A program made the translations under genes and the position numbers. A stretch of 61,049 bases of DNA, filler included, from Hausera hauseri (Eukaryota): assembly GCA_046269625.1 (NCBI GenBank). It is 11 parts of 11 records of this genome, joined end to end, with 100 filler letters (N's around TTAATTAATTAA, not from the genome) between each part and the next. Parts side by side here need not be neighbours in the genome. Positions count along the whole stretch, not along the records: positions 20,073 to 26,124 come from JBJURY010147757.1; 10 more parts are not named here. One strand, 5' to 3'. Of this stretch, positions 24,170 through 26,124 are shown in pieces. The notes below the pieces were generated by a model. The model was given only the letters and a program-made list of their open reading frames with translations. It did no database searches and was not told where the DNA came from. How positions within the stretch are numbered: position 1 is the stretch's first letter; each line of letters starts with the position of its first letter.

Positions 24170-24960
24170 ACCGAGTTTCCCATCAAAAGTGCGGCCATGT
24201 CTTGAGCGTCTTTAAATCGACCGGACTCAATCATGCATTTGGTATAGAGACAATTAATGTATCGATCCTCTGTGTCCAATGATTGGGCCTCGTCCAAATA
24301 ATTACTGGCCAAATGGCGATTCCCAGCATCGTAATAAATACGACCTTTCAGTGCATAGAAGTCAGAGTTGGTGTGATATAGCCGGTTTTCAACGAGCTGT
24401 AAGGCATCCAAAACTCGACCCGTATGACTATAGTGTTGTGCCAGCAGATAATTAAGAAACATTTCGATCGTCGACGGTTCGATCTCGGCATCGACACCTT
24501 CCAATATCTGATATTCGTAAATGTTACGTGTATGTTTTGTAGAGTGTCCCTAGAATATCGACCTTTTCCGGAACGTTGTAGGGAAATTTCAATTGCACAA
24601 ACAACGCCCAAAGTCTCTTGCGAAGGGAACGTTTAATGTAATCATCAGCATATCGCTGAAACTTTTCACAGCGTAGTTTTTTTAGTGGAATCCACCGAGG
24701 CGTAAGTGCTCTCGGGTACTTTGCAATTAATTCATCAAGTAATTTGATAATCATATCCTCGTCATCGGTTACTTGTTTAGACTCCATAAATTTATAGTAA
24801 TAATACTCATTGTCCGGATTTCTATCGATTAATTCTCGAAAGATTTTCTCGGCGTCAGTATATCGATGGAGCCTTAGATAAAGTTCATCCTTGAATTCTT
24901 GGTAATGAAGTTTATCCACGATGCTCGATTCATTGCAATTCAAAAGGCTTAAAGCTTCCT
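24170..24960 (-). pseudogene. NAA15: NatA auxiliary subunit (NAA15/NAT1-like TPR) internal fragment, intronless
   Basis: IVDKL..E.K.EL.L.L.R..DA....[42 protein letters not shown]. Confidence 0.85.
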
Positions 24961-26124
24961 CAAAATTTCTGCTGGTTAGTAAATATCTCTTGATTCTACT
25001 CAGGGCTTCGTATGGATTATCGTACGATCGTTCAGTCAAGCCCGATTCTTGCCGTTGACTGTGGATGAGACGATTTTTAACACTAAATGCGTCTTTCAAT
25101 CGTTCAAGAGCGAGAATTAAAATTTTCGTATCGTGTTTGTTCGTCAAAGGTGGAAACGGAATGGGCGAATAACGTCTACTGTTAAGCTAGTGCACAGATT
25201 GTGCGTAAATGGCCACACCTTCTTCGTTAACCAAATATGGACCGTCTTTCAAGTAGTTGTTTTGTCTTTCTTGTTCCAATTTCAAGTTCAGACAAGTAAG
25301 TTGACCCAAGATTTTCTTACACACTGTTTTGTCGACTTGCATTCCTTCGGATTCTCTCACGATTGTAATGAGCAGTTTTTGTCCACCAATCAGTCTTATT
25401 CTTCAAGTATCGTAAAATCATATTCTTGACAAGTGCCGGCAAATTTGGCACTTTCCAGGGAATATTAGCCTTCCAACATCGCCATGTTTCACTTAAATGC
25501 TGCAAAATACTTTTAGCTTTCGTTTGTTTAATTCCCTCCGGCATCATATCGACAATATCGTGCATAATCGAAGCCCTTAACTCCAGATCGTAATGAGACT
25601 GAACTTTCTGCTTCGTAACAGTTTTAGCAACGCTCTTAATGTGCCGATCTTTAAATTGCCTTGACAAAAAATTGCCTAACCATCGCTCAAGCAGAGGTGT
25701 GATTCCTCGCAAAAGGAAAAGACACACACGCCACATCGGGGTCCAAAATCCAACACCGGGACCTTTCGTAACATTACCTGTATTGAATCGATAGTAAATC
25801 AAATGTTTCAGATCTTTACACATTCTAATCTGTCTCATCAATTTATATTTGTATCGGTACATGCCCGTCAATTGACCGATATGAGCAAATACGTATTGTA
25901 GACCATCGGCCAGCTGGAATGCATCAATGTTCCCCAAACGATATTGCACGTGACAATCAACGACCAATTTGGTAAATCGTAGAATTTCTCGCATCAAATG
26001 AAATGCATTTCCAAATCGAGACTTCTTTCTTTCTTTAGTCGTTAACGTTTTAACTGGTTTCAAATTGAAATTGAAATCCAAATGCAAATAATTCAAATTT
26101 TTACGATGAATGAGCAAATTCAAC
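24961..26124 (-). pseudogene. PRPF8: PRP8 spliceosomal protein internal fragment, intronless, with stop/frameshift
   Basis: [88 protein letters not shown]. Confidence 0.97.

Follow-up and report, generated by a model that had tools for sequence, protein, structure and literature searches.

The window analysed here is a 61,049-nt stretch of Hausera hauseri DNA made up of 12 short contigs, set apart by artificial spacers (e.g., 26125-26224) of 44 N, a 12-nt all-frame stop linker and a further 44 N. Contigs that meet at a spacer have no relation to one another, and their being neighbours here is therefore uninformative. Decayed copies of Ty3/Gypsy elements, along with other mobile DNA, dominate the window, and on the minus strand of one contig (20073-26124) the assembly contains a chimera in which a piece of PRP8 runs directly into a piece of NAA15.

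A single stop-to-stop frame at 24524-25186 (minus strand, 220 aa) reads PRP8 and then NAA15, ending in ...IVDKL, just as a first-pass annotation of this DNA had described. Residues 1-78 of the frame correspond to human PRP8 817-894 (E 7e-30), residues 69-216 to human NAA15 200-346 (E 1e-17), and the Pfam domain NatA_aux_su begins at residue 71 (E 9e-34). The extent proposed by that annotation, 24524..25147, does contain the chimera, and both halves prove to reach further: PRP8 similarity can be followed upstream as far as the contig edge at 26124 (human 504-767), and NAA15 similarity carries on downstream in another frame to ~24190 (human 364-467), so that the whole host-derived block spans 26124 to ~24190. 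Within this block, the PRP8 fragment (24974..26124, minus strand) corresponds to human residues 504-~888, comprising the PROCN domain and beyond, with its 5' end cut by the contig edge; the NAA15 fragment (24190..24973, minus strand) is an internal piece of the TPR region (human residues ~203-466). Neither fragment contains introns, both are cut within the coding sequence, and no poly(A) is present. More than one gene has thus left a partial coding copy here, NAA15 being truncated at both ends and PRP8 at residue ~888. Residues V124, S154, Y178 and N227 of the PRP8 piece are shared with the flatworm entries among 31 named PRP8 homologues, which points to a probably flatworm-like organism, and a TGF-beta type I receptor elsewhere in the window marks it as an animal.

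Downstream, and on the same strand as the two host pieces, lies a similarly decayed Ty3/Gypsy element. It opens with a 5' leader that is GC-rich and then CT-rich (23650..24196, minus strand), followed by a decayed gag and protease-like region (22200..23649, minus strand) and by a decayed pol (20073..21960, minus strand) that is cut by the contig edge inside integrase. Pfam recovers RVT_1, RT_RNaseH, Integrase_H2C2 and rve in that order, the pol order of Ty3/Gypsy elements (RT, RNase H, integrase). The gag/protease-like region has no Pfam match; gag was assigned by similarity to a sister copy at 1471-2170, and the region also holds what we take to be a protease motif. The element has no 5' LTR followed by a tRNA primer-binding site (PBS), as would be expected of a Ty3/Gypsy element; NAA15 codons occupy the place of the 5' LTR, with at most a poor PBS remnant.

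The chimera is a dead pseudogene and encodes no working protein. A usable chimeric ORF, implied by the first-pass annotation, did not survive closer analysis: a stop codon at 25187-25189 lies just upstream of the frame, frameshifts interrupt the PRP8 part near 25330 and the NAA15 part near 24535, the NAA15 fragment additionally carries a two-codon deletion, and no Met occurs in the frame before residue 134, leaving no start codon before the junction and no intact frame across both domains. The PRP8 piece departs at 20/187 columns that are invariant among the 31 named PRP8 proteins, mostly by single-base steps. Conserved columns are changed at 15/136, 3/25 and 11/50 for PRP8 and at 3/22 and 4/17 for NAA15, giving a nucleotide decay of ~5-10%, in which some differences are lineage-specific. 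That the locus is, or once was, a selected PRP8::NAA15 fusion gene is scarcely credible. Such a gene would account for an in-frame junction with 220 codons open across it; an in-frame join, however, has a prior of 1 in 3 and therefore carries no functional meaning by itself, and the missing start, the flanking stop and frameshifts, and the altered invariant residues all stand against it. So does the lack of any homologous fusion among the best 150 of 759 representative matches, of which 70 were set aside as possibly human and the remaining 80 were classified as 53 PRP8-only, 27 NAA15-only and 0 with both genes. As a gene, then, the chimera matters nothing, being dead; as a locus, it can mislead gene annotation and fusion calling.

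Searches for the parents returned relatives and not the organism's own genes. For NAA15, one protein was retrieved among 382 candidates (P0001, 52%), and for PRP8 there were 467 matches, the best named one at 84%, in a search that covered proteins of up to 2000 aa, with full-length PRP8 thus out of range. The host part has no second copy by self-match within the window, and within the literature searched we found no paper on a PRP8-NAA15 (PRPF8 + NAA15) fusion and none on PBS-anchored chimeric retrocopy junctions.

The two junctions

The PRP8-NAA15 junction zone (24952..24976, minus strand) lies 1.15 kb inside the contig and contains neither a repeat nor an N. Comparison with homologues indicates that the crossover most likely falls at 24974/24973, between Thr71 and Ser72 of the frame. 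Among the junction-covering homologues of the 80 kept (after 70/150 had been set aside as possibly human), Thr71 is found in 42/46 PRP8 proteins and 0/21 NAA15 proteins, as against 1/46 and 11/21, respectively, for Ser72. The named PRP8 homologues agree: 26 of the 31 cover the junction, 24 of these 26 have Gln at position 72 and Ala at position 74, and the window codons would need three substitutions to be read as the PRP8 Gln72 and two as Ala74. In a codon-likelihood model with named PRP8 profiles, the crossover posterior is 0.91-0.95 on 24976-24971 and peaks at 24973; with noisier, unnamed PRP8 fragments it is diffuse over 24974-24954, and the named homologues sharpened it. The position of ~24960 put forward in the first-pass annotation is therefore probably ~13 nt too far 3'.

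The same annotation had the crossover falling on a locally similar F/Y-x-E stretch. The similarity holds up and the placement probably does not, as the stretch (codons 73-78, 24970-24953) begins immediately 3' of the likely crossover. At the protein level the F-x-E similarity between PRP8 and NAA15 is real, and in the best case, assuming that synonymous positions agree, up to 14/18 nt match PRP8 in register, a value that is an upper bound and not a measurement because it derives from protein homologues, the DNA of neither parent having been found. A match this good occurs in 0.14% of random pairings (p 0.0014, unadjusted), which becomes p 0.007 after window scanning and, with the first base of codon 73 left out, 0.025. 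The tract has the look of NAA15 sequence, as if nascent NAA15 cDNA had annealed on PRP8 mRNA; the crossover codon Ser72 matches the PRP8 Gln at 0/3 nt, an imperfect fit to annealing. Microsimilarity of this kind is equally expected from end-joining.

At its other end, NAA15 gives way to the Gypsy leader at 24180..24198 (minus strand). NAA15 similarity ends at 24190, up to which the codons match those of the closest relative, P0001, and beyond which they fail (Lys codon, 0/3); leader homology begins at 24196, for an overlap of 7 nt. From 24196 onward the leader is homologous to 53624-53410 on the minus strand (score 82 against a shuffle maximum of 46; 0 of 200 shuffles as good). It is weakly similar to sister copy A (1 of 200 shuffles), with which it is colinear over 982-1530 (plus strand) through to gag (score 50, 0 of 40 shuffles). 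No match was found between this stretch and the sequence after the polypurine tract (PPT) in three sister copies (19, 20 and 193 of 200 shuffles were as good), which is why we regard it as leader and not LTR; the GC-rich segment 24196-23960 was rejected as the element's LTR on the same ground. A weak resemblance of 25702-25620 to the LTR of sister copy B (2 of 300 shuffles, in one of eight pairs tried) is treated as chance, given that it lies inside intact PRP8 codons.

Sister copy A (1-5100, plus strand) has a PBS-like site at 982, and its protease region seems to be missing between gag and RT. The site at 982 is the complement of the 3' end of tRNA-Asp (as given in part of PMC5699543) at 12/14 nt, a fit equalled in 0 of 500 local shuffles, with the candidate tRNAs chosen by eye after recall; across the window, the motif turns up no more often than expected by chance (2 matches when at most 3 mismatches are allowed, against 1.3 expected). 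The copy at 53.6 kb fits tRNA-Tyr (as given in part of PMC4536317) about as well as tRNA-Asp, and no tRNA gene was found in the window. The PBS-like site of sister copy A and the focal junction both lie 548 nt before the respective gag ATG, an exact agreement that is partly luck, because the alignment with sister copy A has many gaps; the focal site is itself a poor PBS (8/18, by eye). The safe statement, judging from these alignments, is that NAA15 is fused to the Gypsy leader, that no LTR intervenes, and that the join lies no more than ~20 nt from the PBS-equivalent position. The 5' and 3' LTRs of sister copy A could not be paired, its upstream DNA failing to match the DNA after its polypurine tract; the LTRs of this Gypsy family are therefore not well defined here.

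Origin of the chimera

We think it probable that PRP8::NAA15 arose inside a Ty3/Gypsy particle as a chimeric retrocopy that is now dead. The three pieces lie on one strand, in the order in which minus-strand synthesis would visit them. In the Ty3 cycle, as outlined in part of PMC5371799, RNase H removes R-U5, minus-strand synthesis ends at the PBS, and plus-strand transfer is normally next. Here, Gypsy reverse transcriptase copying element RNA toward its 5' end would have reached the PBS, the natural end of the minus-strand template, from which the minus-strand cDNA may have jumped onto a co-packaged NAA15 mRNA and copied ~780 nt of it. In a second jump, the new 3' end could have annealed to the similar, in-register stretch of a PRP8 mRNA, of which at least 1150 nt would then have been copied. 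Integration would presumably have come about via a return jump to element RNA or via recombination beyond the contig edge, with neutral decay of the cassette to follow. Template switching by reverse transcriptase, which the first-pass annotation had proposed from the microsimilarity, thus emerges as the best-supported origin, mainly because NAA15 joins the Gypsy leader on the same strand, without an LTR, at the PBS-equivalent position, a fusion which that annotation had not cited; the microsimilarity itself contributes only an upper bound. The fossil would then show, in seemingly clean form, two template switches in succession, one of them apparently at a primer-binding site.

The lack of introns has to be read with some care. 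In P0001, the closest NAA15 relative, residues ~135-515 lie in one unbroken ORF; homology is lost abruptly at its residue 379, and the ORF stops 11 residues later, so that in P0001 an intron seems to begin only beyond the copied span. The copied NAA15 span may therefore be a single exon, and the lack of introns is not diagnostic of an mRNA origin.

LTR-mediated retrocopies, two-parent chimeras included, are described in part of Tan et al. 2016 (PMC5131818), with microsimilarity at 25/29 junctions; in the Drosophila cases given there, the retrocopy replaced element ORFs. The process is thus already described, and the PRP8::NAA15 locus would be a new instance. Like CG4799_CG11924_r in BATUMI, and like maize Bs1 as cited in the same excerpts, it fuses internal pieces of two unrelated genes, and it shares with such retrocopies the joining to an LTR retrotransposon, the absence of poly(A) and possible microsimilarity at the switches. 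Fusion to LTR-retrotransposon sequence in the same orientation is present on the 3' side, the 5' side lying beyond the contig edge at 26124. Unlike the cases in the excerpted text of PMC5131818, host DNA here stands upstream of a retained leader-gag-pol and is joined at the PBS-equivalent position, and the chimera is old and dead; the element ORFs are not replaced, since the downstream sequence still comprises leader, gag, protease, RT, RNase H and part of integrase. The best reading is that the chimera works like an LTR-mediated multi-parent retrocopy and is a candidate member of that class, with element flanking seen on the 3' side, intron loss and microsimilarity as putative features, and ORF replacement absent.

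An origin by joining at the DNA level is a real rival, if a somewhat unlikely one. On this view, the PRP8 and NAA15 pieces would be duplicates of genomic or pseudogene sequence, brought together by microhomology-mediated deletion or break repair. Gypsy would have come in as a separate event: either it inserted and subsequently lost its 5' LTR, or a cDNA end annealed at PBS-like homology without the help of integrase. Joining at the DNA level stays in contention because an intron-less sequence does not discriminate here and the contig ends before the far flank is reached; the microsimilarity serves it equally well, the window is rich in repeats, and there is another sister copy that, behind an apparent 3' LTR, borders directly on a decayed receptor gene. 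PBS-directed, integrase-independent insertion of LTR-element cDNA is moreover documented, and in the Tf1/HIV-1 insertions described in part of PMC11042837 the element/host junction lies at the PBS, as it seems to here. In the Tf1 pathway of the same excerpts, however, the genomic PBS homology is downstream of the 3' LTR and not upstream of the leader, whereas at this locus it is host CDS that stands upstream of the leader in place of the 5' LTR, and there is a second, host-host junction to be explained. Joining at the DNA level would thus call for two independent events, both keeping one strand, together with a deletion ending within ~20 nt of the PBS. The parts are also alike in their rate of decay, with 3 disabling breaks in 1.93 kb of host sequence versus 8 in 3.3 kb of Gypsy (counted by eye); these rates are compatible with one age, in a weak test of low power (p 0.76).

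The remaining explanations are less probable again. An RNase H-like fragment near 55700, which we take to be possibly LINE-derived, would lend something to an improbable scenario in which a LINE reverse transcriptase switched between both mRNAs during target-primed reverse transcription and Gypsy is merely a later neighbour. Template jumps that fuse different cellular transcripts directly and in one orientation are known from the LINE chimeric pseudogenes described in part of PMC2104539. The chimera differs in that its 3' end is mid-CDS NAA15 joined directly to a Ty3/Gypsy leader. It lacks a 3' UTR, a poly(A) and a LINE 3' end or tail, and with them the intact, poly(A)-tailed 3' end of a LINE processed pseudogene. 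Highly improbable, in turn, is a chimera of the assembly or library, in which a fragmented assembly of short contigs put together reads that do not belong with one another: the 12 short contigs with their N spacers, the single copy in the window and the lack of a protein match with both halves (80 classified) would all allow for it, but both halves are decayed pseudogenes and not live cDNA, the junction is well inside its contig with no N or repeat, and both junctions fall at sites that are sensible for reverse transcription.

Other host fragments and mobile DNA in the window

Host-type domains were found by Pfam in three other places, in a search of 279 of the 322 stop-to-stop frames of at least 45 aa, outside masked element regions. 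At 33137-~31800 (minus strand) lies a decayed ACVR1-like (ALK-like, TGF-beta type I) receptor without introns, followed by an AT microsatellite and then by a decayed N-terminal piece of pelota (31694-~31060, minus strand). Within 31060-33445 (minus strand), the pair stands directly behind the polypurine tract and an apparent 3' LTR of ~315 nt, its ends judged by eye, of a sister Gypsy copy on the same strand. It is possibly a second two-gene cassette; the receptor could also represent an ordinary insertion into a pseudogene. An SH3 fragment, a decayed SH3-domain C-terminus (~52900-52451, minus strand), lies behind an LTR-like stretch (53394-53138) and a short leader, with a perfect 12-nt tRNA-Leu PBS at 53137-53126 (motif as in part of PMC8905726). 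To judge by this arrangement, 52451-53394 (minus strand) would match the textbook organisation of a non-autonomous LTR element with host cDNA as its cargo. The LTR-PBS-SH3 unit sits inside the leader that is homologous to the focal one (53624-53410).

Together with PRP8 and NAA15, five host fragments adjoin LTR-element parts, and all are in the element's sense. They amount to three candidate neighbourhoods in 12 contigs (PRP8::NAA15, ACVR1-like + pelota, and LTR-PBS-SH3), so that agreement in sense has a chance of 1 in 8. Extending the Gypsy-particle origin to all three is speculative: that the second strand transfer of Gypsy reverse transcriptase fails again and again at the PBS, with host mRNAs then chained onto the minus-strand end, strikes us as unlikely, and it is with equal reserve that we raise the corollary that these elements keep gag-pol but have strings of host coding fragments beside their LTRs or instead of them. 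If true, recurrent failure at the PBS would be a PBS-anchored variant of LTR-mediated retroposition, unusually frequent and mappable genome-wide. Should the other host fragments share this origin, they would offer a natural system for measuring host-exon shuffling by LTR elements and its switch sites.

Several further features of the window may be recorded. A C2H2 zinc-finger frame, the third of the other places with a host-type domain, lies at 60299-60751 (minus strand), with no LTR element seen beside it, and a 440-codon open frame without a Pfam match lies at 58224-59543 (plus strand). Broken frames of a Monjiviricetes-type fusion glycoprotein (Pfam PF24664) occur at 27554-29545 (plus strand) and 41454-41624 (minus strand); they could derive from an endogenous virus or from an env-like gene that a retroelement took up. 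The regions 11700-18300 (minus strand), 7031-8919 and 47198-50200 comprise two related decayed copies with a type B DNA polymerase (PF03175) and ORFs associated with it, presumably Polinton/Maverick-like, along with a second repeated pair at 84% identity. A short MITE-like element with terminal inverted repeats, identified by eye, lies at 51858-52080.
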